Source of the DNA: Ignavibacteriota bacterium
Lineage (GTDB): Bacteria > Bacteroidota > Ignavibacteria > UBA10030
NCBI GenBank assembly: GCA_963701295.1
Contig: OY969585.1
Location: forward strand, 256,001-320,000
DNA length: 64,000 nucleotides
Direction of reading: 5' to 3'
Below the pieces are notes generated by a model. It was not told where the DNA came from, did not search any database, and worked only from the letters and a program-made list of their open reading frames with translations. Positions 5,537 through 50,098 of the stretch are shown here, piece after piece; within the stretch, counting starts at the first letter, position 1, and each line of letters starts with the position of its first letter. The translations under genes and the position numbers were made by a program.

Positions 5537-5872
5537 ATGATCGACAGAACTGTTGCGGAACACTACAAATGGGGTCAGAATTGCGATGGTTGGCATCTTG
5601 TCAAATCAAATTCACTGAGTGTTATTCGAGAGTTGATGCTGCCACACACGTCGGAGATGCGCCACAAACATTCCCAATCGCGGCAATTCTTTTTCGTGCT
5701 GTTCGGTGAAGCAACAATTGAGATTGATGGAAAAAAGCAAATTCTTCAGTCAGAACAAGGGCTAGAGGTCGCCCCAGGCATAACGCATCAAGTTTTCAAT
5801 AACAGCAATAAAGAATTACATTTCCTCGTTGTCTCATGTCCCCCGAGTCAAAGCGACCGGATCTATGTGTAG
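5537..5872 (+). CDS. cupin domain protein
   Basis: HKH..SRQFFFVL.G and PGITHQV cupin motifs. Confidence 0.9.
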   Translation: MIDRTVAEHYKWGQNCDGWHLVKSNSLSVIRELMLPHTSEMRHKHSQSRQFFFVLFGEATIEIDGKKQILQSEQGLEVAPGITHQVFNNSNKELHFLVVSCPPSQSDRIYV

Positions 5873-5993
5873 TTACCATTTCGGCTTGCACCGCTTATCC
5901 AGCGCATCAAGCTCGGCTTGAAGAGAAGAAAGCATCAGCAAAGCGTGATACTCAATATTTCAGAAGGTGTGAATGCATTTTGCATAGTGTTTT

Positions 5994-6010
5994 GAGGTTT
6001 AGTATATTTG
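5994..6010 (+). repeat. 17-bp promoter-like repeat, copy 1 (copy 2 at 7462-7478)
   Basis: GAGGTTTAGTATATTTG is exact in both places, each upstream of a lipoprotein gene; contains a TAnnTTTG box. Confidence 0.6.
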
Positions 6011-6145
6011 AGAAGCCATGAACTCGAAACTTGGTTCTTTGTACTATGAACAATAAAGCATTTAATACGATAACCCAAATAAGATCATCGCATAGTGCAT
6101 TGAGCCGCAATCCATTCTGCAACATATAAAAGAAAAGGACAAACC

Positions 6146-6721
6146 ATGAATAAACTTGCATTCTTCATTTTCGTAGGTTCGTTTACACTCCTTTCCTCTT
6201 GTGCGACAACAAATACACAAAAGGAATCCAGTATCAATCCGAATGACATTGTTCGATGGACTGATACAACAAAACTCAGTTGGGACGATTTTCAGGGTCA
6301 GCCCACCAAGGAAGCTAAAGTCGGTTCTGAAATCATCATTCAATCACCGGCCAATTTCCATAAAGCGACATTTCTAGATCCCGCATCCATAACAGTAGAA
6401 TGTTATGTCGACAAGAAAGCCTCTTGGGTCAAAAAGTCTCAAGCGAAACCTCAGCTTCTCTACTATCATCAAACTCTTTTTGATCTTTATGAACTGTACG
6501 CACGAAAGCTGCGCAAAAAACTTTCTGAGACTAACTTTGGCATTGAGAATCCGAGTGGAGTATTTGATAGTATTTATCAAGCACATACCGCTGATCTTTC
6601 CAAAGCAGTTGCTCAATATCGAGCAGAAAGCGGAATGGGGACAAAAAATAAAAAAATAAAGGAATGGTCTGAAAAGATAGCGAGCGAACTCAAAGAACTG
6701 GATGAATATAAGGCTCAATAA
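6146..6721 (+). CDS. lipoprotein, DUF922-like
   Basis: LSSC lipobox; KLSWDDFQG and FDLYELYARKLRK segments. Confidence 0.7.
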   Translation: MNKLAFFIFVGSFTLLSSCATTNTQKESSINPNDIVRWTDTTKLSWDDFQGQPTKEAKVGSEIIIQSPANFHKATFLDPASITVECYVDKKASWVKKSQAKPQLLYYHQTLFDLYELYARKLRKKLSETNFGIENPSGVFDSIYQAHTADLSKAVAQYRAESGMGTKNKKIKEWSEKIASELKELDEYKAQ

Positions 6722-6861
6722 ATGAAAGAGCTGTTTGTGTTTAACAAACCAAGTATGAATCATCCAGAAAAATGATTCACAGCCGGAGTCTGCTTGCAAA
6801 GGAGGTATGCAATTTATTACAATGGAACCATCATCCGTTAAACAACCAGACGAGAAGGTGA

Positions 6862-7335
6862 TTGATCATGATAAATGAAAATATCAGATTCAAACCGTGG
6901 AGAAGATTTTTTAAATTTGCACCACTGATCGTTTTATCCTCCCTTGTCGTCATCATCGTATGGCAAACACAAAAGCCAAATCCTGCTTATCAATACAAAC
7001 GGCAGGTTGTCTACACATCTCCTTTTTTTTCTATAAAGGAATGCAGCCCAGACGAAAAGAGAATTGCAAAACATTTTGCCGTTGATACGTTACCCGGATT
7101 AATGCAAAAGGGATTAATTCAAAAATATCAGAGGACAGCATCGGGCACTTCTATTGCAGTCAGCGGGGGACTCTGGAGAAAGCAGTCGAAATTTTTTAAA
7201 ACGAGCCTGCTCAAAGAGGTCTTTGTATTTAATGAAGTTCAAGGGTACGAATTATCGACGAAAATTATTGACGGCTTGTCGGGAAAGCTGTACGCTTGCA
7301 TATCCTCATCGACAAAAATGGATTTTTACGATTAG
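6862..7335 (+). CDS. hypothetical single-pass membrane protein
   Basis: 157-aa ORF with an N-terminal TM helix. Confidence 0.65.
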   Translation: MIMINENIRFKPWRRFFKFAPLIVLSSLVVIIVWQTQKPNPAYQYKRQVVYTSPFFSIKECSPDEKRIAKHFAVDTLPGLMQKGLIQKYQRTASGTSIAVSGGLWRKQSKFFKTSLLKEVFVFNEVQGYELSTKIIDGLSGKLYACISSSTKMDFYD

Positions 7336-7461
7336 TGGATTGACAGACTAATCAGAAACTCAAACTTAGCTTGTCCAGAAAAATGCATCACAACCGAGGC
7401 TGGAGAATGTTATTGCACAAATTGCGATACAAATGAATAGTATATAAATTCACAGCGTTGA

Positions 7462-7507
7462 GAGGTTTAGTATATTTGTAAGCCAGAGGCTTATGAGCCT
7501 TTGGCTT
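7462..7507 (+). repeat. 17-bp promoter-like repeat copy 2 plus hairpin
   Basis: GAGGTTTAGTATATTTG followed by the stem-loop AAGCCAGAGGCT-tatg-AGCCTTTGGCTT. Confidence 0.55.
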
Positions 7508-7667
7508 GGAAGCTATCAATTTTAAATGAGACAAGGTGGAAACACGCTTTGCGTGTTACAGGCACAGATATCCGGCTGTTATGTACAAAAATTGAAATTT
7601 ATCAGTGCCACACCCTGACTTTTCGGGATTGCTACAATAAGCTGGCAGCTTTTAGTAAAGGAGATGT

Positions 7668-8141
7668 ATGAATTCATGTAATAGAATTTCACACTTTAGA
7701 TTTTACATTTCATTCGTACTTGCAATTGTTATATTTGTTGGGTGCAAGGAAAACTCGACCGTATCAATACAATCATCTGCACCCCAAAATACACCAGTAG
7801 TCGTTAGTACAACAAACGCATTCACGTATGCGATTGATGCCAATACGTACACTGACAGCACTGCCGATGATCTTACATTTTCTTCAGACTCGCTTGCATG
7901 CACTCTTGCGGTCGGCAGTTATTTATCCGGCGATGCGTCATTGTATATTCGTGATTCAACAGATTCCATCGTTTTTTATGATTCAATAACTACGAACAAA
8001 GTAATTGTCATTACTCAGTCAGGGAAAGGAATTCCGAAACGATTCACATTATCGTGCAACAATTTCACTGGAAAAATCAGTTTTGCTTTAAGCCGCACTG
8101 GAGGGTTATCAATAGACTCATATATTTCTATTTTCCGCTGA
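7668..8141 (+). CDS. hypothetical lipoprotein, beta-rich
   Basis: RBS AAGGAG, FVGC lipobox, Ser/Thr-rich. Confidence 0.7.
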   Translation: MNSCNRISHFRFYISFVLAIVIFVGCKENSTVSIQSSAPQNTPVVVSTTNAFTYAIDANTYTDSTADDLTFSSDSLACTLAVGSYLSGDASLYIRDSTDSIVFYDSITTNKVIVITQSGKGIPKRFTLSCNNFTGKISFALSRTGGLSIDSYISIFR

Positions 8142-8309
8142 CCAACCATTTTCTCCCCCGAAAAGAATAATTTCGGGGTACAGCTGCAGTCCGTTCGATG
8201 TACACAACATCCAAGAATGACAATTTCAATGAAGCATAAAACGCATTGGAGATCATCATGAAAATGCATATCAAATCATCATGGGAAATATTAGAATTGT
8301 ATTGTATCC

Positions 8310-8822
8310 ATGCTTCTTATTATGGCAACACCTCCAGAATGTATAGCCCAAGAAAAACCAACAGCTCCTTCTGAACGTGACTCCATAATCTCTGCGGCAC
8401 GCGAGATCATCGGTATGCAAAAGTATTGCGCGCTCATTACTGTCGATTCATCCGGAGAGCCGCACGTGAGAACCATGAATCCGTTCCCGCCGGAAGACGA
8501 TATGACCGTCTGGATTGCCACCAACAGCCGCAGCCGAAAGGTGAAAGAAATCCGAAACAATCCTCATGTATGCCTATACTACGCAAACCACAGTCAAGTA
8601 ACCGGCTATGTATCAATCACCGGAAAGGCTGTTCTCGTGAATGACATGAATGAAAAACTCAAGCGGAAAAGAGAGTATTGGAATCAAGCTTTTCCAGATT
8701 GGAAGTATTTAATTCTGATACAAGTAATTCCAGAAAGACTCGAAGTAATAAATTACAAACGTGGCATGTTAAACGATCCGGTGACGTGGAGTATGCCCTC
8801 CATCGAATTTAAAAAACCGTGA
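8310..8822 (+). CDS. pyridoxamine 5'-phosphate oxidase-like / general stress protein
   Basis: LITVD..GEPHVRTM, SRKVKEIRNNPHV; the true start may be the out-of-frame ATG at 8258 (RBS GGAG). Confidence 0.85.
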   Translation: MLLIMATPPECIAQEKPTAPSERDSIISAAREIIGMQKYCALITVDSSGEPHVRTMNPFPPEDDMTVWIATNSRSRKVKEIRNNPHVCLYYANHSQVTGYVSITGKAVLVNDMNEKLKRKREYWNQAFPDWKYLILIQVIPERLEVINYKRGMLNDPVTWSMPSIEFKKP

Positions 8823-39142: not shown

Positions 39143-41800
39143 CTATCCACCGATCCAGTAGGTCAGCTTTAGCATGAAAATATTGTCAGGCTTTGAACTG
39201 ACAAGACGGTCGAACGAGCCGTTTAATACAAATGTCCCGTCTACTATATTATCGGAACGGCTCTGTGTCCACACTAAAAAGAGTGTAGAACCGGGCATAT
39301 ATTCCCATCGCAGCACAGCATTGCCTCGAAGAGACACAAAATTGAAATTTGGATTTGAAATGTTCATTACTGGAGTAGGCCCGCTGCCATCTGGATCAAA
39401 ATCATAGCTGCCGATTGAACCATCAGAATTAAAATTTTTCATTATTGTAGAACCATCCTTCCCGAACACCAGGAAATCAAACGATCGCGGACGCGCAAAT
39501 TCTTTGAAATTGGTAAAATTCCCCGACGAAAGTAATGGCTGAACAAAGAGTTGGAAGCTCAGCGTTGGTGTGAGTGTCCAGTCAACACGTAATTGAGCCG
39601 AGAGTTCCTTATATATCAAATCTGCAAAGATATATCGCTTGCCATATGTTCCCGTAGCAAGTGGGTCATCAAAATTGTCAATCCAGTGTGCACGATCTGA
39701 GTTGAACACATATGCCGGACCGAATGATACTGAAACACTGGAGACAGGACGCATCGTAACGGACAAGTTGATACTATGATAAAACCCATTGTGTCCTTCA
39801 TATGCATACCAGTAAGCTCCGAAAACATACTTGTTGCGGCTATCGGAAGAATAATTGAAATTCCACTCGTAGCATACAGGATTGAGCATTTTCGGGCCGC
39901 CGCGCGTACGGTAGTCGTCGAAGGATTCAAATCCATAATCATAAGTCAAACCGAAGTAATCATAGCTTGGTAATTGGTAATCAATGCCACACCACACGCC
40001 TCGGCATGTTGCATTCCCGCCGAAGTCGCACGTGCCGAAAACTGAACCGTAAATATTCACATAACGATAATATGGCGTCGGGTCATTCCACTTGTATCCA
40101 GTACCCAAATGATAATTGATTACATCGGTCCGCGACAGAAATCCGAGATCCCCTGATTCAAAACCTGGGCTGATAAATCCGAGTGCCGCATTGAGCATCG
40201 TATTGCCTTTTTGTTTGTTCAAGGTAAACCGACCGGCATAACCGCTTAACGATGTTGCAGAACTGTCTAAAAATAAATAGTGTGCATCGGGCCGCTGAAA
40301 ATAATGGGAAGAACTTTGTTGTAAATTGATCATCCGTTCACGAGTGCCTTGAACGTTCGAGACTGCGGTCCAACCGGAAATCATATACGTTTTGTCTGCA
40401 TCGAATGCTGTCCAACCATCAAGAGCAGCGACATAGGCATTTTCATTGACATCTGTCTTAATACCAGTGTCATCGAAAAATCTGTTAACAGATGTAAAAA
40501 GAATTCCTGCACCCTGCCGACCGTCGTTAAAATCCCGTTGAACGCGTGCGACCGTATATGATGTCATCGGTTCGACTTCTAACGGCCAATGTGTTCCAGC
40601 AGTATCCAATTGCGCATACTCACGTTTCGTAAAAGCTTCAATCACTCCGACATTCCATCCATCAACAACTTTACCTGTGATTTTTGCGGCACCAAGGATA
40701 TGTGTGCCGAGCGGAACATCGGCATAATCGTAATCCGGCAGTCCACGCTGCGGTGGGCGACCGATGCGGCGACTGTAAAACAAACTCGGTGATGACCAGT
40801 TAAAAGACCAATAGTTACTCACACCTCCCTGCCCGAATGAAAAGATATTCATTCCTTCGAGAAAAAAAGGGCGTTTCTCATTGAAGTATGTTTCCACATC
40901 GCTTAAATTTACGACAGCAGGATCGACTTCCACTTGCCCGAAATCCGGATTGATTGTTCCTTCGAGTACTACGTTGGTGCCTAAACCCCATTTCAAATCC
41001 GCTCCAATAGATGGAGTATATTTTGATCCTGTGTTAAACGGATCGCCGGCATCGTGTGGTGCATATTCAGCTCGTTCGGTAATGTATGGAGTAACTTCCA
41101 ATCGGGTTGGAGTTGTAATATGTTCGATACCGATAAGATCAGGAAACCGAGAAACAAATCCGCTTTCGTTCCGTGGTGTGTAAACAAGGAAGGCTTGTTC
41201 TTTTTTCCTGCCAATAATGCGGTAGAAATTGATTCCCCAAACATATTGATCATGTTGTTCGAACCGCAATTGGGAAAACGGAATCTTCATCTCAACGCAC
41301 CATCCATCAGAAGTGATACGTGGTTTTGCTTCCCATATTCCATCCCAGCTTCCATCGCTCCAATCGTCGTTATAAAGAATCCCGTCCCGCAATACGCCTG
41401 CTGCCGATACGATAAAGTAAAAAGCATTCCGTTTGTCGTGGTATGAATCGATGCCCACAGCAAATTCATCGGAACTGGCATCGTTATCACGCCGTGCGAG
41501 TCGGGCAATAATGGAATCAGGATGTATATCTTTCATTCGAGCAGCAATGTATAATGCTTCGTCATCATATGCTACCCACACTTCTGTCGATTCAGATACT
41601 GCTTGCCCCTGGTTTGGCTCTTGCTGAAAAAATGCTGTTGTACCTGCACGCTGCCAGACCGATTCAGATAATATACCGTCAATGTGCATTCGTTCATTCA
41701 CACGAATTGCATGAATTTGTTTGACGAATTCCGGTGTTTGCGCATTGAGATGTAAGAAACCCACGAAGACGATGAATAGAAAGCAGCCGACAGAATGCAT
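39143..41800 (-). CDS. DUF5916 outer-membrane protein with CBM9-like N-terminal domain
   Basis: IDG.L.E..W, EMKIPFSQLRF, NPDFGQVEVD, EKRPFFLEG, C-terminal KLTYW. Confidence 0.88.
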   Translation of the reverse strand: MHSVGCFLFIVFVGFLHLNAQTPEFVKQIHAIRVNERMHIDGILSESVWQRAGTTAFFQQEPNQGQAVSESTEVWVAYDDEALYIAARMKDIHPDSIIARLARRDNDASSDEFAVGIDSYHDKRNAFYFIVSAAGVLRDGILYNDDWSDGSWDGIWEAKPRITSDGWCVEMKIPFSQLRFEQHDQYVWGINFYRIIGRKKEQAFLVYTPRNESGFVSRFPDLIGIEHITTPTRLEVTPYITERAEYAPHDAGDPFNTGSKYTPSIGADLKWGLGTNVVLEGTINPDFGQVEVDPAVVNLSDVETYFNEKRPFFLEGMNIFSFGQGGVSNYWSFNWSSPSLFYSRRIGRPPQRGLPDYDYADVPLGTHILGAAKITGKVVDGWNVGVIEAFTKREYAQLDTAGTHWPLEVEPMTSYTVARVQRDFNDGRQGAGILFTSVNRFFDDTGIKTDVNENAYVAALDGWTAFDADKTYMISGWTAVSNVQGTRERMINLQQSSSHYFQRPDAHYLFLDSSATSLSGYAGRFTLNKQKGNTMLNAALGFISPGFESGDLGFLSRTDVINYHLGTGYKWNDPTPYYRYVNIYGSVFGTCDFGGNATCRGVWCGIDYQLPSYDYFGLTYDYGFESFDDYRTRGGPKMLNPVCYEWNFNYSSDSRNKYVFGAYWYAYEGHNGFYHSINLSVTMRPVSSVSVSFGPAYVFNSDRAHWIDNFDDPLATGTYGKRYIFADLIYKELSAQLRVDWTLTPTLSFQLFVQPLLSSGNFTNFKEFARPRSFDFLVFGKDGSTIMKNFNSDGSIGSYDFDPDGSGPTPVMNISNPNFNFVSLRGNAVLRWEYMPGSTLFLVWTQSRSDNIVDGTFVLNGSFDRLVSSKPDNIFMLKLTYWIGG

Positions 41801-43377: not shown

Positions 43378-44985
43378 TTATTGAAAAACTTCTTTCTGGA
43401 TATCCTCTTTCATTACGGAAGCTGCCGACAGAAACATTTTAAATATCGAACCTTTTCCTTCTACGCTCTCTACCGTCATAAATCCTTTATGTCCCTTGAC
43501 AATGCCGAGGCAAATCGAAAGACCAAGCCCTGTACCTTTCCCTATTTCCTTCGTCGTATAGAACGGCTCAAAGATCTTATGGATTTCGACAGCCGGTATT
43601 CCGACGCCTGTATCGCTGACACTAAACACTACATACGCTCCTTCGACTGCATCAGTATGTTCTTCGGCCATCTCTTTCGATACCAAAACATCACCTACAG
43701 AAAATGTTAATTCACCGCCTTGCGGCATAGCATCGCATGCGTTGGTGCAAAGATTGATTAACACTTGATGGAGCTGGGTTCTATCCCCGATCACCGGTGA
43801 AACAATATCCGATATACGAGTGCGGACTGAAACGCTGTCAGGTACAATTTGACCTAATAAACCTGTAATATCTTTTACAATCTTCAAAGGATTGAGTTTT
43901 ACATGCTTACCCTCCACTCCTTTCACAAAGGAAAGAACTTGATAGACCATTTCAGAGCCATGCTTCGCACTTGACTCGATGGCTTTTAAAAGCCGCTGAC
44001 TTTGGGTATCCAACAACTTCCGTTTAAGTACTTCCACACCGACCAGGACCGGCGCTAGTGTATTGCTCAAGTCATGCGCGATACCACTTGCGAAAATGCC
44101 GATACTTTCCACTCGCTGTGCTCGGAGAAAGCGTGTTTCCAATCGTTTTCGCTCTGTCACATCCGTGCAAACTTGAAGAATGCCAGCGGGCTCGCCGCCT
44201 GGATTGTGAACAAGAGTCCATCGACAATCTGCGATGATGGCCGTTCCATCTCTTTTTTTTTGGCACAGTTCGCCCGACCATGCCGAATGCTGTACCGTCA
44301 ACGTGTATGCGCGATCAAATCCTTCCGTTCCATCCGACCCATAGATGTACTTCACTACATCTCTTCCTACCACTTCTAACGGCTCGTAGCCATACATTCG
44401 TTCAGCACCTTTGTTCCAGTATCGTACCGTTTTGTTAAGGTCAAGAACGAGGATGGCATCCTGCGCCTGATCCAGCAGCAACGCTTGTTCACGAATTTTA
44501 TCTTCCGCAAGCCGGCGTGTGGTGATGTCGATAATAACTGCTTCGGTAAAACTTTTGAGAGAATGGATAGAAGCAGAGAAAGAAATCCAAAATTCCGATC
44601 CGTTTTTACGGCGCAAAAGGGTCTTATAATCCTCCACTGACTGACCTGCTGATAAACGTTCAATAAGATATTCCCGATCTTGAAGAGACATTGAAAAGAG
44701 CACTCCTTTTACTTCATCGAATGTCTCGACTGCAAACATACGAAGGAGTGCGTGATTTGCATCGACAACATTCCAATGATCGGTCGTTATGCGAAGCATA
44801 CCGGCAGGTGACTGCTCAAAAAGATTACGGTACTTTCGTTCGCTGATTGTCAATTCTTCCAGTTGACGCTTCTTGGTCGTAAGCTCCTTTTGTTTGCCTG
44901 TCATAACTGCGGCCACAAATCCAACAGTAATCGTTAAGAGTGCAATGGTTCCAAGTGCAACTGTCCACCAAATATTAAATGTCAC
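43378..44985 (-). CDS. PAS-PAS sensor histidine kinase with a single N-terminal TM
   Basis: GIAHDLSN H-box, NLCTNA, DTGVG, GTGLGL; GTG at 44985 overlaps the upstream TGA (GTGA); ORF track start 45054. Confidence 0.92.
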   Translation of the reverse strand: MTFNIWWTVALGTIALLTITVGFVAAVMTGKQKELTTKKRQLEELTISERKYRNLFEQSPAGMLRITTDHWNVVDANHALLRMFAVETFDEVKGVLFSMSLQDREYLIERLSAGQSVEDYKTLLRRKNGSEFWISFSASIHSLKSFTEAVIIDITTRRLAEDKIREQALLLDQAQDAILVLDLNKTVRYWNKGAERMYGYEPLEVVGRDVVKYIYGSDGTEGFDRAYTLTVQHSAWSGELCQKKRDGTAIIADCRWTLVHNPGGEPAGILQVCTDVTERKRLETRFLRAQRVESIGIFASGIAHDLSNTLAPVLVGVEVLKRKLLDTQSQRLLKAIESSAKHGSEMVYQVLSFVKGVEGKHVKLNPLKIVKDITGLLGQIVPDSVSVRTRISDIVSPVIGDRTQLHQVLINLCTNACDAMPQGGELTFSVGDVLVSKEMAEEHTDAVEGAYVVFSVSDTGVGIPAVEIHKIFEPFYTTKEIGKGTGLGLSICLGIVKGHKGFMTVESVEGKGSIFKMFLSAASVMKEDIQKEVFQ

Positions 44986-45605
44986 TTCTTGCACAAAAAG
45001 CCCCGCATATAGAGCAGATAAGAGATGATTATAAAAACCCAGTTCAAAGGCCATATCATCAGAAAGCGTTCAGTCGAAATCTGAAGCATCTTGTTAAACA
45101 AAGCGAACAAGAACAGACTTCCCGCTGAATAGATGATCGTACCAGCAGCAACCCAAAAGCGTGGATCGTTTATCCATACGATGTCGCTTTCCTTCACAAC
45201 ATCTAACAATAAGTAGGCTGAAAATGCTATTTGTAATACTTTTGAGATCGTTGCTGTCCAGTCATCAGCAAGCGAGAGTGGTTCAAATGAAAACTTACTG
45301 ACGATCCAGAAGAAGAGAAACACAACAAGACATATCAGGAGAACCCTTTTTTTCCCATGCTGCTTCATCCATAATGAATATATAAAAACTATGGCTGTCA
45401 ATTCAATCATCGTAGAAAAATGCGATATCCAGAGGTTGTAGATATGAAGAGAGGTAAGAGTCCATTCTACGCAAGTCATTCCGACATTGAATAGAATGAG
45501 CCATTCAAGAATTCGTAAAGGATGTGGGAGACTCCGATAACGGAAGCCTCCCACCAACATCGCCCCTATCTCAACAAAGAAAGCGATATAAAAAAGAACT
45601 GGCAT
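44982..45605 (-). CDS. 6-7 TM membrane protein of unknown function
   Basis: Hydrophobic helices throughout; YNLWISH, PRFWVAAGTIIY, WPLNW. Confidence 0.85.
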   Translation of the reverse strand: MPVLFYIAFFVEIGAMLVGGFRYRSLPHPLRILEWLILFNVGMTCVEWTLTSLHIYNLWISHFSTMIELTAIVFIYSLWMKQHGKKRVLLICLVVFLFFWIVSKFSFEPLSLADDWTATISKVLQIAFSAYLLLDVVKESDIVWINDPRFWVAAGTIIYSAGSLFLFALFNKMLQISTERFLMIWPLNWVFIIISYLLYMRGFLCKK

Positions 45606-45619
45606 GAGGATATAAAGAA

Positions 45620-46039
45620 CTACCGCGCGAGTTCACTGACAACATCACAATATGGAGGACATGGAGACATTCTCTCCATAATGAGACCTGTTTGTATGTC
45701 CTGCCCTTTTGCGTCAACGCCGACAAGTACCAAAGTCGGTGAGCCATCATCCATCTGCGCATAATAATAACGGATGCCTATAACTCCCGGCTGCGCGAGT
45801 ATCTTATCAAAGGCATTGCGACCAAAGAAGCCGCCCTTTATGGAAGGAGCTTTGAGATTCGAACGATGATTTTTTACGAGACGAAGTGCCGTCATAAGAT
45901 CAACTTGATGATTCTCATTACCTGTGAGTTGTTGATTTTGAGAAGTCGAAGCGCTCTTCGCGGGACCATGAAATGCCCAAAGCAATCCAAAACACAGAAC
46001 AACAAGAATGCCTAGGATAAGTGTTCCTGTGGTTTTCAT
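45620..46039 (-). CDS. secreted small protein with C-terminal PCPPYC motif
   Basis: Strong RBS AGGAGG, N-terminal signal/anchor, GIRYYY..LVLVGVD core, SPCPPYCD tail. Confidence 0.85.
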   Translation of the reverse strand: MKTTGTLILGILVVLCFGLLWAFHGPAKSASTSQNQQLTGNENHQVDLMTALRLVKNHRSNLKAPSIKGGFFGRNAFDKILAQPGVIGIRYYYAQMDDGSPTLVLVGVDAKGQDIQTGLIMERMSPCPPYCDVVSELAR

Positions 46040-46402
46040 ACATCCTCCTATTATATAAGAAATGATTGGTTACTCATTCTCGTGTCCTGGCGTTATTGTA
46101 GAACACGAAACGATGCGATTTTTGATTAGTCTGGCGTCGCACACTTAGAAGATACTCCAATTCATGAAGAAAGCAAGTCCTTCTTAGAGGAACTCTTGAA
46201 ATGATACGCATCTTGAATTGCGTTTCTCGAAAGACATTCTTACATTCTAATAGAATGGAACCACGATAAGGTTTCTCGTGTAGAGAATGTCGCGATTCGT
46301 TTATCCACCTTCCGAAAATCGTAAACGTTCCAAACAAGAGAGGCTTCTGCGAGTTGAGGGCTACCGCAAGAAGACCTATGACAACAGATAGGAGAATCTT
46401 AC

Positions 46403-47515
46403 TTGGATTCGGCACGGATCATAGAGACAATGAAATCTTCTCGGGAAATACTCAAGCGCGTTGATCAACTTGTTAAGGCTAATAATTTAGAAAAAGCTCT
46501 TCATGAAGTTAGGAAAGCGCGTGAGATAGATCCAAAGAATTTATATGCATTTGCTTACGAAGAACGCATTCAAGAACTTTTCGCTCAACGGCAGCATCAA
46601 GAAGCATTAACTCACCAAAAACTCAAGAGTTCAGATACACCGAGTGAAGATCTGAAACCCTACAACATGGGAGACCAGTTGCTCGGTGAACGCACCGATA
46701 TAACTGAAACGAAAGTACCGGCGTTGTATGAAGAATTTAAAAAAGCCGGATTGCGGAAATCTGACCAAACAGAATCCACTCGGACAAAGCGAGCATCCAA
46801 AGAGGCGTTAGAGATTTTCAGACAGGCGCTGCTGCTTGCATGGTCAGATGGCCAGAAAACAGATGAAGAAGTGAACGAACTTCAATATCTCAAACAATCA
46901 CTCTTCATCACTGACGAGGAGCAGGAACTATTAGATCGGCAAGCGAAACTGGAATGCTACATCCTCTTGCTCAAACATTTGCTCCAGTCCCATGCACCGA
47001 AGGGAGAGGTCGCAAGTACTCTTGCTGAGCTTCGTAGAAGTTTTGATGTTTCCAGCTCCGATCAAGTCGTTATCGAAGCAAATCTGGTTGTTCACAAGGA
47101 AGGGAAAGGGAAAAAGCAAACAATCGCCGTCATTGACGACGAAAAGCAAATACTCACACTGATGAAAGAAATACTAACGCAAGCACATTATCAAGTGATG
47201 GATTTTAGCACATCGGACAATGCATATGATTTTTTAAGAAAAGAGAAAGCTGACTGTATTCTCTGCGATATCAGCTTAGAAACTTCCACGATGAATGGTT
47301 TTTTATTCTATGAGAAAGTCAGAGAATTGCGTCACCTCCAACAAGTGCCATTTATCTTCATAACAGGATTGAATGATGTTGTGTTGATGCGTGCCGGCAA
47401 AGAAATGGGTGTTGATGACTTCCTTGTTAAACCTATCCATCGCGAAAATCTCCTTGCTACAATTCGGGGAAGAATCAAGAGGTATGAGCAAATGAAACTT
47501 CTATCGGGACTATAG
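46403..47515 (+). CDS. response regulator with N-terminal helical (TPR-like and TerB-like) region and C-terminal REC domain
   Basis: VIDDE, LCDISL, FITG, FLVKP; AWSDGQKTDEE segment. Confidence 0.85.
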   Translation: MDSARIIETMKSSREILKRVDQLVKANNLEKALHEVRKAREIDPKNLYAFAYEERIQELFAQRQHQEALTHQKLKSSDTPSEDLKPYNMGDQLLGERTDITETKVPALYEEFKKAGLRKSDQTESTRTKRASKEALEIFRQALLLAWSDGQKTDEEVNELQYLKQSLFITDEEQELLDRQAKLECYILLLKHLLQSHAPKGEVASTLAELRRSFDVSSSDQVVIEANLVVHKEGKGKKQTIAVIDDEKQILTLMKEILTQAHYQVMDFSTSDNAYDFLRKEKADCILCDISLETSTMNGFLFYEKVRELRHLQQVPFIFITGLNDVVLMRAGKEMGVDDFLVKPIHRENLLATIRGRIKRYEQMKLLSGL

Positions 47516-47557: not shown

Positions 47558-50098
47558 CTAATTTCTCTTAAAGACATTTCTCAAGATTTCCCCAAAAACG
47601 CTTTTCTTGAATGGTTTCAGAAGAACGGTATGTATGCCAAGAGATTTGAGTTTATCCGGACCATCCATTTGATCATACCCTGTCATTAATATAACCGGTA
47701 AGTCTTTACGTACCTGAAGGATTTTACTCGTGAGAATGAGACCCGTCATCTGCGGCATTGTATGATCGGTAATAAGAAGATCATAGCCATGGGGATCATT
47801 TTCAAATGCTTTCAGTGCGTCCAAAGGCTTTGTAAATGGAAACGCCCGATATCCTAGTCCTTTTAATAACTCTGTGAGTGCATCAAGCAATTGCGGCTCA
47901 TCATCTACTATCATAATGCGTTCGGAACTTCCAAGGCTCTCTTTAATTTCTTCAAGCTTCACACTCTGTTCTTCACCTTCGTAGATCGGAAGATACACAT
48001 CAACTTGCGTACCTTTCCCCACTTGACTTTGAACTTTTGTCACACCGCCATGATTTTTCACAATAGCATGAACAATTGCTAGTCCTAATCCAGTCCCCTT
48101 CCCTGGTCCTTTCGTCGTAAAAAATGGTTCAAAAATTCTTTTCAACGTGACTGCATCCATACCGGTTCCCGAATCCTGAACAGTAAACACCGCATATCGT
48201 CCTTTTTTCAGATCAGGGTGAAACAACATTGCCCGGTCATCATATTCTATACTCTTCTGGCGTAAAATAAGTTTCCCATCAGTTCCATTCATTGCTTGAG
48301 CTGCATTAGTACAAAGATTCATGACAACCTGATGGATCTGCGTTGCATCGGCTAAGACAAGAGGTCCTTTTATTGGTAAATCTAGTTTAATCTCGACGGT
48401 TGTAGGAATTGATGCACGGAGGAGTTTCATACCCTCACGTAAGATATAGTGCAATCGAACCGGCCGATAGTTTGAATCTTGCTTCCGACTAAATGCCAAT
48501 ATTTGTTGAACAAGTTCTTGTGCCCGATCCGAAGCATGAATCACTTCATCGATATGTTTCATTGCGCGGTGGTTCCTGCTCAGTTTTAATTTTACTAACT
48601 CTGAGTTGCCAATAATAACCGAGAGAATATTGTTGAAATCATGCGCTATACCGCCGGCAAGAGAACCGACAGCTTCCATTTTTTGCGATTGAAGTAATTG
48701 TGCTTGCAAATTTCTTTGCGTTTCTTCTGCTTTCACTCGTTCCGTAATATCGCGGAGAATAAGTGTGTAGAGCTCCTCTTTTCCCACCTTCACTTTCGAA
48801 ATAGAAGCTTCAATAGGAAAGTTCTCTCCGTTGACACGAACACCATTAATTGTTCTCATTGTTCCTTCGATCAAGCCTGCAACCGAATTTTGATCGGGCT
48901 CATATGAATGACTCTGATCTTTAACCTTCTGAGACAGGGCGATGAAACGATCTATAGATTGTCCGAGAGCCTCGGCTTCTGAGCAACGGAACATTTGTTC
49001 CGAAGCAGGATTAAATGATTGGATCCGTAGATGCTTATCTAATGTAATAATAGCTTCCATTGCCGACGTTATGATGCTTGAAAGGCGGCTTTGATTTTCG
49101 CGAATGACTTCTTGAGTTCTTTTCAACTCTGTCAGATCGGTCACAATACCAAGTACAGATGGCTCTCCTTCATAGCGAATCAATTTTGACATTTTGAGAC
49201 ATTCAATTTTTTTATTCGCTTTATCGACGAGCGTACATTCATATGGTTCAACTTTGATTCCTGCCAAATGTTGTCTAATTTTTTGAAGGACCATGTACCG
49301 ATGTTCAGGTGCAATAATCGAAAGAAAGTCAAACTCTGGAGCATAGATTTCTTCACGCGAATAGCCGATCAATTCTTTACATTTTTCATTCACATAAATA
49401 ATTTTCCCATTCTTGTGAATGTAGACCATGTTCGGCAGTTCTTCTGTCAGCGTTCTGAATTTCTCTTCAGATTCTCGTAATTCTTCGGCTTGCTTTCGAA
49501 TTGCTTTTTCGCTTGTTCGAGCTTTGTTAATACTTCGTAAAAGACGATCCGCCAGGATACGAACAGCAATTGCTGTTATTAAGAGGATAACCGCTATATC
49601 AACGATATCAAGATAATCAGTGTACTGGTGGTATTGCTTAACAATCACTCTCGCAATTTCGAGGAATCCAATGACGATAACGGTGAAAATCGTCCAGAAT
49701 GTGAATGCATAAAAAAAGGGTGGCTTAAAAGCAATTCCTGCAAACATAAGACATATTGGGATACCAAGAAGGACGATGTTGTGAAGACCTCCAGATGCAT
49801 AAAGGAGGTACGTGATAAAACCCATAACTGTCCAAAGAAGAAGACTTTTTGCCCATTGCAAACGACCTATCCTCAGAAAGACTATTGACAGAATAATCAA
49901 TACACCAACCAAAAGTGTTTGAAGAACGAACAGATACCGTCCGGCGACTTCTCTCTGGAAAACGAGTGTAGCAAATCCAGCAAGAATACTTAGTGCGATG
50001 ACATTGAGGATTTCTGCAACGCGGTTTTTTTCTTCATCACCAAAATCCGGTGGTTTAAGGAGTGAGTGGACCTTTTGATACATTTCTTTTATTCGCAT
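47558..50098 (-). CDS. hybrid membrane PAS-PAS histidine kinase with REC domain
   Basis: About 5-6 TM, two [18 protein letters not shown]-terminal VDDE..TDHTMP..KP. Confidence 0.93.

Follow-up and report, generated by a model that had tools for sequence, protein, structure and literature searches.

Background

The LiaFSR system of Firmicutes comprises a kinase without an outside domain, the accessory membrane protein LiaF and a response regulator of the NarL/LuxR type (PMC3543457, PMC7191749). Here we describe a locus of three genes that can be compared with it. The locus lies in a stretch of 64,000 nucleotides (hereafter the window) of an Ignavibacteriota bacterium (GenBank assembly GCA_963701295.1, contig OY969585.1, positions 256,001 to 320,000). 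Gene A encodes a small protein with a cysteine motif, gene B encodes a membrane protein, and the third gene encodes a histidine kinase. We argue that the A-B-kinase set probably forms a new multi-part signal receptor.

A LiaFSR-type three-component system is the closest working analogy to this locus. In both, a kinase without a sensor of its own is encoded together with an accessory membrane protein. The likeness extends to the pairing of a HisKA_3 kinase with a REC+GerE regulator, which we found in a second copy of the unit and in 7/7 distant loci checked. The kinase in the window differs in being of the PAS-HisKA kind, with one helix and no regulator in its operon. The accessory proteins also differ: they are two, they are unrelated to LiaF, and they consist of a seven-helix bundle (B) and an extra protein with a cysteine motif (A). 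No Pfam or NCBIfam family was found for B or A that would indicate membership of the LiaF family.

The agr system (AgrD, AgrB, AgrC, AgrA) has the same order of a small cysteine-containing protein, a polytopic membrane protein and a kinase. The original prediction, which was made from the sequence of the window, saw a parallel to agr. The present locus differs in that A is a folded and often Sec-exported protein, B has neither a match to AgrB nor a conserved catalytic pair, and the kinase and the regulator are of another class. Seven-helix modules coupled to a histidine kinase are also represented by 7TMR-DISM_7TM (PF07695) and HisKA_7TM (PF16927). In contrast to these modules, B is encoded by a separate gene, and the only fused form seen is protein P0167 (see below). 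Finally, copper or redox proteins of the Sco/SenC(PrrC) type, with a CxxxC motif and a His and encoded with a kinase, share some features with A. The likeness consists of two cysteines three residues apart, a distant histidine and the position of a membrane-anchored periplasmic protein beside a kinase.

Results and discussion

Linkage of the three genes

A scan with A alone gave 60 loci, all from metagenome-assembled genomes labelled Bacteroidota, Ignavibacteria or similar. Gene B follows gene A on the same strand in 56 of them, and the remaining four end at a contig edge just past A. A same-strand gene after B is available in 50 loci, including the second copy in the same genome (L005). Kinase domains directly adjoin B in 38 of these 50 loci and lie one gene further in L047. 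In the other 11 the gene after B encodes a PAS-only protein cut by the contig end (one locus), a protein with only a transmembrane (TM) helix and PAS (nine loci) or a protein without a family (one locus). Because the arrangement is seen in 56 of the 60 loci retrieved with A and again in the second copy, it is far beyond chance. These counts bear out two claims of the original prediction, namely that the three genes form a conserved signalling unit and that the membrane protein is tied to kinases lacking their own sensor. The check proposed there, whether homologues of the two proteins occur together and with kinases, gave co-occurrence of A, B and kinases.

The kinases beside B have several architectures (TM-PAS-PAS-HisKA, hybrid with a receiver, short HisKA_3), and the A-B pair is thus modular across kinase types. 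Copy numbers vary: in some loci a single B is preceded by a tandem of two or three A genes, and in others a single A precedes two or three B genes. The tandem A genes (two or three, without a signal peptide) of L024, L028, L031, L035-L037, L042, L045, L046, L049 and L054 encode proteins whose N-terminus is extended by about 35 conserved residues, rich in Pro and Ala and closing with an Arg-rich stretch; the last copy lacks both cysteines. In these loci B is longer, and the kinase is a hybrid with a receiver.

The TM-PAS proteins (164-218 aa) consist of a membrane helix, a coiled segment and the first PAS region. They are homologous to the kinase N-terminus and lack the kinase core. Their genes follow B in L025, L029, L032, L033, L034, L041, L044, L047, L048 and L051. 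In L047 the TM-PAS gene is followed by genes for a separate 419-aa HATPase_c protein and a LuxR-type regulator. A CHASE3-PAS sensor protein is encoded further downstream in L033 (with HisKA and HATPase_c) and in L047 (cut by the locus end).

Second copy and distribution

The second copy of the unit lies in the same genome at about 1.053 Mb (G000:C1:1052904-1055560; positions 5788-8560 of locus L005). It reads A'-B'-HisKA_3 kinase-LuxR-type (REC+GerE) regulator. B' is 28% identical to B, and the kinase of this copy has 271 aa.

Among 401 sampled genomes of the phylum, 41 carry A and 78 carry B, the latter in up to six copies per genome; of the 41 with A, 40 carry B too. Together with the loci retrieved by A, this sample agrees with the statement in the original prediction that relatives occur in Bacteroidota. 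B is the next gene in 18 of 20 distant Bacteroidota A loci according to a hidden Markov model (HMM), and an open reading frame (ORF) of 223-229 aa occupies that place in the other two. All seven of the distant loci that were checked by Pfam continue with a HisKA_3 kinase of about 255 aa and then the REC+GerE regulator.

We also considered 20 B loci without a listed A. They are the best-scoring loci of this kind and not a random choice, and they were scored with HMMs built from eight Pfam-verified sequences each. A kinase follows B in all 20, and a regulator is present in 19. A weak match to A was found upstream of B in eight of the 20, and in several more an ORF with a PCPxxC-like C-terminus lies ahead of B, so much of the apparent absence of A is divergence. 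As the B-kinase-regulator series is kept in B loci without a listed A, it is the core of the unit, usually preceded by A.

These loci raise the alternative that the kinase relies on B alone for sensing or regulation, with B responding to a membrane-borne cue or envelope stress as LiaF does for LiaS. A would then not sense a ligand; it would help or inhibit, or be one of the products of the regulon. The complete B-kinase-regulator series in 19 loci, some of them without a recognisable A, the larger number of genomes with B and the short loops of B on both sides of the membrane would all fit, and LiaFSR provides a precedent (PMC3543457, PMC7191749). What makes this alternative unlikely is the behaviour of A: it comes first in the operon and adjoins B in nearly every A-retrieved locus, its motif is near-invariant, and at least 8/20 of the supposedly A-less loci have a weak A match while others have the PCPxxC-like upstream ORF.

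The kinase and its overlap with gene B

Close to its start, behind a short N-terminus, the kinase has a single hydrophobic helix. Two PAS regions, HisKA and HATPase_c follow according to Pfam, and an extracytoplasmic domain is lacking. Translation and domain search thus agree with the earlier description of a kinase with one TM helix and no extracellular sensor. Since it has one membrane helix and no outside domain, its sequence indicates that it cannot sense on its own.

The original prediction placed the kinase start at a GTG overlapping the stop codon of B. The GTGA overlap is indeed present at 44985..44982 (kinase GTG 44985..44983 on B TGA 44984..44982). That GTG is not the only candidate: a second GTG, at 44994..44992, stands at a position where related loci also have a start codon. 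The open frame of the kinase runs over 43378..45054, and the other possible starts are 44985 and 45054. Alignments with kinase homologues begin at residues 21-26 of the long frame (L009, L038, L014, L018). In 27 of 41 loci the final 30 nt of B contain a start codon in the kinase frame. The kinase frame stands in a -1 relation to the B frame, and B and the kinase are coupled in translation because either kinase start overlaps the end of B.

Several loci depart from this pattern. In L017, L020 and L021 the kinase frame has no ATG, GTG or TTG between the last stop and the membrane helix, and the B frame continues there; the reason may be that the start codon is unusual, that the frame changes or that the assembly is wrong. 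In P0167, a protein of 350 aa from one ENA contig, B reads directly into the kinase N-terminus and then into unrelated residues. This sole fused B-kinase form probably reflects a noisy assembly with a frame error. Taken with the -1 relation of the frames, it could also hint at a programmed frameshift between B and the kinase. No fused B-kinase forms of 374-2000 aa were found, although this search is itself weak evidence.

Protein B

The original prediction of a membrane protein with six or seven helices corresponds to seven helices in a confident AlphaFold2 model (predicted local distance difference test, pLDDT, 88.3; predicted template modelling score, pTM, 0.85). The loops are short on both sides of the membrane. 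Judged by the Lys and Arg counts of the loops, the N-terminus would lie outside and the C-terminus inside, in the window and in 20 distant relatives alike.

B has 88 close relatives and no match in Pfam or NCBIfam. Comparison with PDB sequence profiles gave only chance matches to SecE (E >= 0.058), and no named cluster was found in the ESM Atlas. Among 49 B members, PF07695 was matched by three (best E 0.011) and PF16927 by one (E 0.0038), all below the threshold. We rejected 7TMR-DISM_7TM as a family for B, as hhalign of the B alignment against 31 collected PF07695 domains gave a probability of 3.2%. HisKA_7TM was likewise rejected, the one match to PF16927 being weak. Kinship with the N-terminal membrane part of the neighbouring 846-aa hybrid kinase was also rejected (BLASTP E 0.078 over 41 residues, not significant). 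Prediction of a complex of B with A residues 36-139 gave a score of 0.00 in two runs, which is no evidence either way.

In both structure searches the top 50 matches of B are all G-protein-coupled receptors (GPCRs), microbial rhodopsins or designed GPCR-like folds. The Foldseek matches have E >= 0.13 and a TM-score of about 0.5, values that are common for helical bundles. The VIA matches have Z 10.1-12.8 over 186-204 aligned residues at a root-mean-square deviation of 3.6-4.9, and Z below about 13 is likewise common for such bundles. Thus, as far as the model goes, B resembles GPCR and rhodopsin folds only generically.

The best-kept positions in 69 B sequences are N57, E68, W100, F150, W151, Y159 and W185. 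H62 is the only invariant His of the close family; among the 69 sequences this position is Asn in 34 and His in 17. B has no conserved pair of His and Cys, and its only common Cys is at the cytoplasmic end.

Protein A

Protein A ends in ...ERMSPCPPYCDVVSELAR. No match was found in Pfam, NCBIfam or the PDB sequence profiles, and 49 members of the family scanned singly against Pfam at E 5 gave only scattered sub-threshold matches, none of them to SCO1-SenC. The ESM Atlas returned only unnamed Bacteroidota clusters. Searches of the literature found no paper on the A or B family, the CPXXC matches concerning synthetic disulfide-directing peptides. Neither family, PDB nor literature searches revealed a characterised member, in line with the original prediction. 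The family itself is large: 195 close relatives, and 2258 cluster representatives matched by the profile at E <= 0.001 (944 at 1e-10), many of them with two domains.

The residues invariant in the close family are H44, A51, N57, G69, F72, L81, Q83, G85, R90, Y92, V104, G107, C127, P128, P129 and C131. Of 429 aligned A domains, about 95% keep the Cys-Pro...Cys pattern (C127, P128, C131), about 88% keep H44 and about 43% have a third Cys, at position 86. The conservation of PCPPxC that had been predicted was observed: CPPxC is present in 63 of the 78 A copies in our loci, with Phe (34) or Tyr (18) as the most frequent variable residues. The tail after it is exactly eight residues long in 49 of the 63 and ends in a Leu-x-Lys/Ser pattern. 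In ten extra A copies of multi-A loci the motif is replaced by a Cys-free stretch containing His, and the tail is kept. Some distant A proteins read CPDxCP. This variant may resemble copper sites of the Sco type.

In the AlphaFold2 model of A, which is of moderate quality, two helices pack on a sheet of three strands. A Foldseek search of the PDB with this model gave nothing at E <= 0.001, and a wide VIA search gave a best Z of 2.9. A second structure search gave at best Z 2.5, to CopG, and Z 2.0 to the PepSY protein YpmB. These searches match the model to no solved fold and assign none to A, and with such a model they say little for or against the thioredoxin-like fold of Sco/SenC.

Export of A was judged by a hydrophobicity heuristic that calls a signal peptide, a lipoprotein box or an anchor. 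One of these was called in 67 of 147 representatives of the family, and 80 had no export signal. The corresponding number for the A copies in the loci is 34 of 78. Most A proteins of the 20 distant loci begin right at the domain.

These data bear on the agr parallel. Under that interpretation A would be a peptide precursor, B would cleave, cyclise or export its cysteine tail, and the kinase together with B would sense the peptide. The gene order is that of agr, CPPxC spans five residues from Cys to Cys and is followed by a tail whose length is fixed, some loci have A genes in tandem that share the same C-terminal ends, as is often seen in peptide-precursor loci, and many A proteins lack a Sec signal. 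However, the best conserved part of A is a domain of about 85 aa and not the tail. In two-domain members of the family the motif and tail sit inside the chain, after the first domain; the motif is therefore part of the domain and not a free terminal peptide. The Asp that was predicted to follow CPPYC, with the spacing of AgrD, fails as a family feature since the residue after the second Cys varies among the 78 copies. For these reasons, with processing judged by sequence only, we rejected an AgrD-type precursor. Furthermore, many A proteins carry Sec or lipoprotein signals, which is also at odds with agr, as is the lack of any such signal in more than half of the representatives.

The other components do not follow agr either. 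The impression in the original prediction that the membrane protein is unlike AgrB was right: B has no match to AgrB (Pfam PF04647) at E 0.1, none of 49 B members has one at E 5, the His of the close family is mostly Asn in the wider set, and there is no conserved His/Cys pair. A polytopic kinase of the AgrC type with a LytTR regulator was rejected as well, the kinases here having one helix and HisKA or HisKA_3 with HATPase_c, and the regulators being REC+GerE proteins of the LuxR type. The agr model thus fails in every testable defining feature, and we consider this explanation very unlikely.

A bacteriocin-type locus should also be mentioned. In such a locus the cell would secrete A as a toxin or pheromone-like protein, the membrane protein B would confer immunity to it, and the kinase and regulator would serve only to control expression. 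A small and often exported cysteine protein beside a polytopic membrane protein and a two-component system, with tandem A copies in some loci, could be read in this way. The translational overlap of B with the kinase in most loci, the persistence of B-kinase-regulator where A is not recognisable, the lack of any conserved transporter or processing gene nearby and the lack of an export signal in half of the A family make it hardly credible.

Proposed mechanism

That the genes form a signalling unit is well supported by their linkage. For its mechanism we favour, with some reservation, a split multi-part sensor kinase in which B is the membrane partner and A a Cys2-His co-sensor. B, a stand-alone seven-helix protein, would be the obligate membrane partner of a sensor-less kinase, and it would pass the signal to the kinase through contacts within the membrane. 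Both suggestions come from the linkage, and the B-kinase partnership is the best-supported mechanistic step. A would be a co-sensor that tunes B or the kinase by means of CPPxC and the conserved N-terminal His. Such a Cys2-His role is plausible. In the clade of the window A would be exported or anchored, with its domain outside the cytoplasm. The unit ends in a LuxR-type response regulator in most other Bacteroidota, and in the clade of the window it has no regulator in the operon. There (L006-L010), a convergent gene for a 2-hydroxyacid dehydrogenase is found after the kinase instead.

Metal binding or a thiol switch would be the most likely way for A to work, although this is the weakest step of the scheme. 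A redox or metal switch at CxxxC, which the original prediction had named as another possibility, is a better lead than the agr-like reading. As about half of the A family has no export signal, a role that requires periplasmic disulfide chemistry cannot hold throughout the family. Two Cys and a His could bind a metal on either side of the membrane.

A number of observations weigh against the scheme of a split sensor. About 6 to 12 of the 20 B loci without a listed A have no recognisable A, so A may be dispensable. Both cysteines are absent from some A copies (the ten extra copies in multi-A loci, L061 and 3/20 distant loci). The model of A has a pLDDT of only 69.6, and of less than 50 in the region of the motif. 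The export signal is missing in 80 of 147 representatives and in most distant A proteins, and the topology of B is unchanged throughout, which makes a single binding face of B for A hard to picture. When conservation of the B faces was compared with the presence of an A export signal, the ratios were 1.04 and 0.82, a weak difference that is confounded by relatedness. The C-terminal Cys codon of B (44991-44996, minus strand) overlaps the kinase start in the window and in 40 related loci, where B codons ending in ..G TGC or ..A TGC provide GTG or ATG in the kinase frame. This Cys may be kept for the kinase start codon and not as a functional thiol. Finally, the variable flanking genes give no hint of the stimulus.

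A bolder variant would make B a bacterial receptor subunit similar to seven-helix GPCRs or rhodopsins that relays the signal to a single-pass kinase in the membrane, with A as its dedicated ligand, whose Cys2-His site would report copper or redox state. We regard this variant as doubtful. If it were true, there would be a widespread receptor class of Bacteroidota built from two families without a described member.

Layout of the locus and neighbouring genes

As the original prediction had read them, the genes for A, B and the kinase are co-oriented; they lie on the minus strand. The ORF listing and the sequence show them to be tightly packed. The strong ribosome-binding site ahead of gene A and the 14-nt gap between the TAG of A and the start of gene B, which encodes the expected 207-aa membrane protein, were found as described. 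The features are listed in Table 1.

Table 1. Positions of features of the A-B-kinase locus in the window
Feature	Position	Strand	Description
Shine-Dalgarno-like AGGAGG	46044..46049	-	4 nt ahead of the gene A ATG (46039); read directly
Gene A	45620..46039	-	139 aa; N-terminal signal/anchor helix, conserved ~85-aa alpha/beta domain, C-terminal CPPYC and 8-residue tail
A residues 1-31, hydrophobic N-terminal segment	45947..46039	-	Putative export signal or membrane anchor; AlphaFold2 helix 3-24; hydrophobicity heuristic
A codons C127-P-P-Y-C131	45647..45661	-	C127, P128, P129 and C131 invariant in close-family alignments
Gene B	44982..45605	-	207-aa seven-helix membrane protein; N-terminus out, C-terminus in (positive-inside rule)
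Histidine kinase from the GTG at the conserved position	43378..44994	-	One TM helix, PAS, PAS, HisKA, HATPase_c
B 3' end / kinase start overlap, 13 nt	44982..44994	-	B codons Leu-Cys-Lys-Lys-stop; GTG (44994..44992) made from TTG-TGC
Kinase single TM helix	44902..44976	-	Long-frame residues 27-51; read from the translation
Kinase core, HisKA (320-378) and HATPase_c (423-543)	43426..44097	-	Domain search

A scan of the region for promoters and terminators gave a number of sites not above that in shuffled sequences. A weak terminator-like hairpin with a U run lies at 45000-45018 (minus strand), within the 3' end of B and ahead of the kinase start.

The flanking genes of the loci are variable and include primase, ABC-F, a plug of the type IX secretion system, other two-component systems and one RND pump. 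In the window, a gene divergent from gene A (46403-47515, plus strand) encodes a 370-aa protein with a C-terminal receiver and weak N-terminal matches to TPR/TerB-like domains. We rejected it as the cognate regulator, as it is not beside A in any other locus. The gene at 47558-50098 (minus strand) encodes the 846-aa hybrid histidine kinase, which has a multi-helix N-terminus, two PAS domains, HisKA, HATPase_c and a receiver. On the other side, the gene at 39143-41800 (minus strand) encodes an 885-aa protein with DUF5916 and a CBM9-like domain and is syntenic in the closest relatives (L006-L008).

Conclusions

Both protein families described here are new, and the principle is already known. Many bacterial kinases are without a sensing domain, and A and B represent two unmatched families that are hard-wired to such kinases. 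Solving the unit would give a sensing mechanism to many orphan two-component systems of Bacteroidota from soil, sediment and elsewhere, and it would make clear how a seven-helix protein encoded on its own can drive a kinase.

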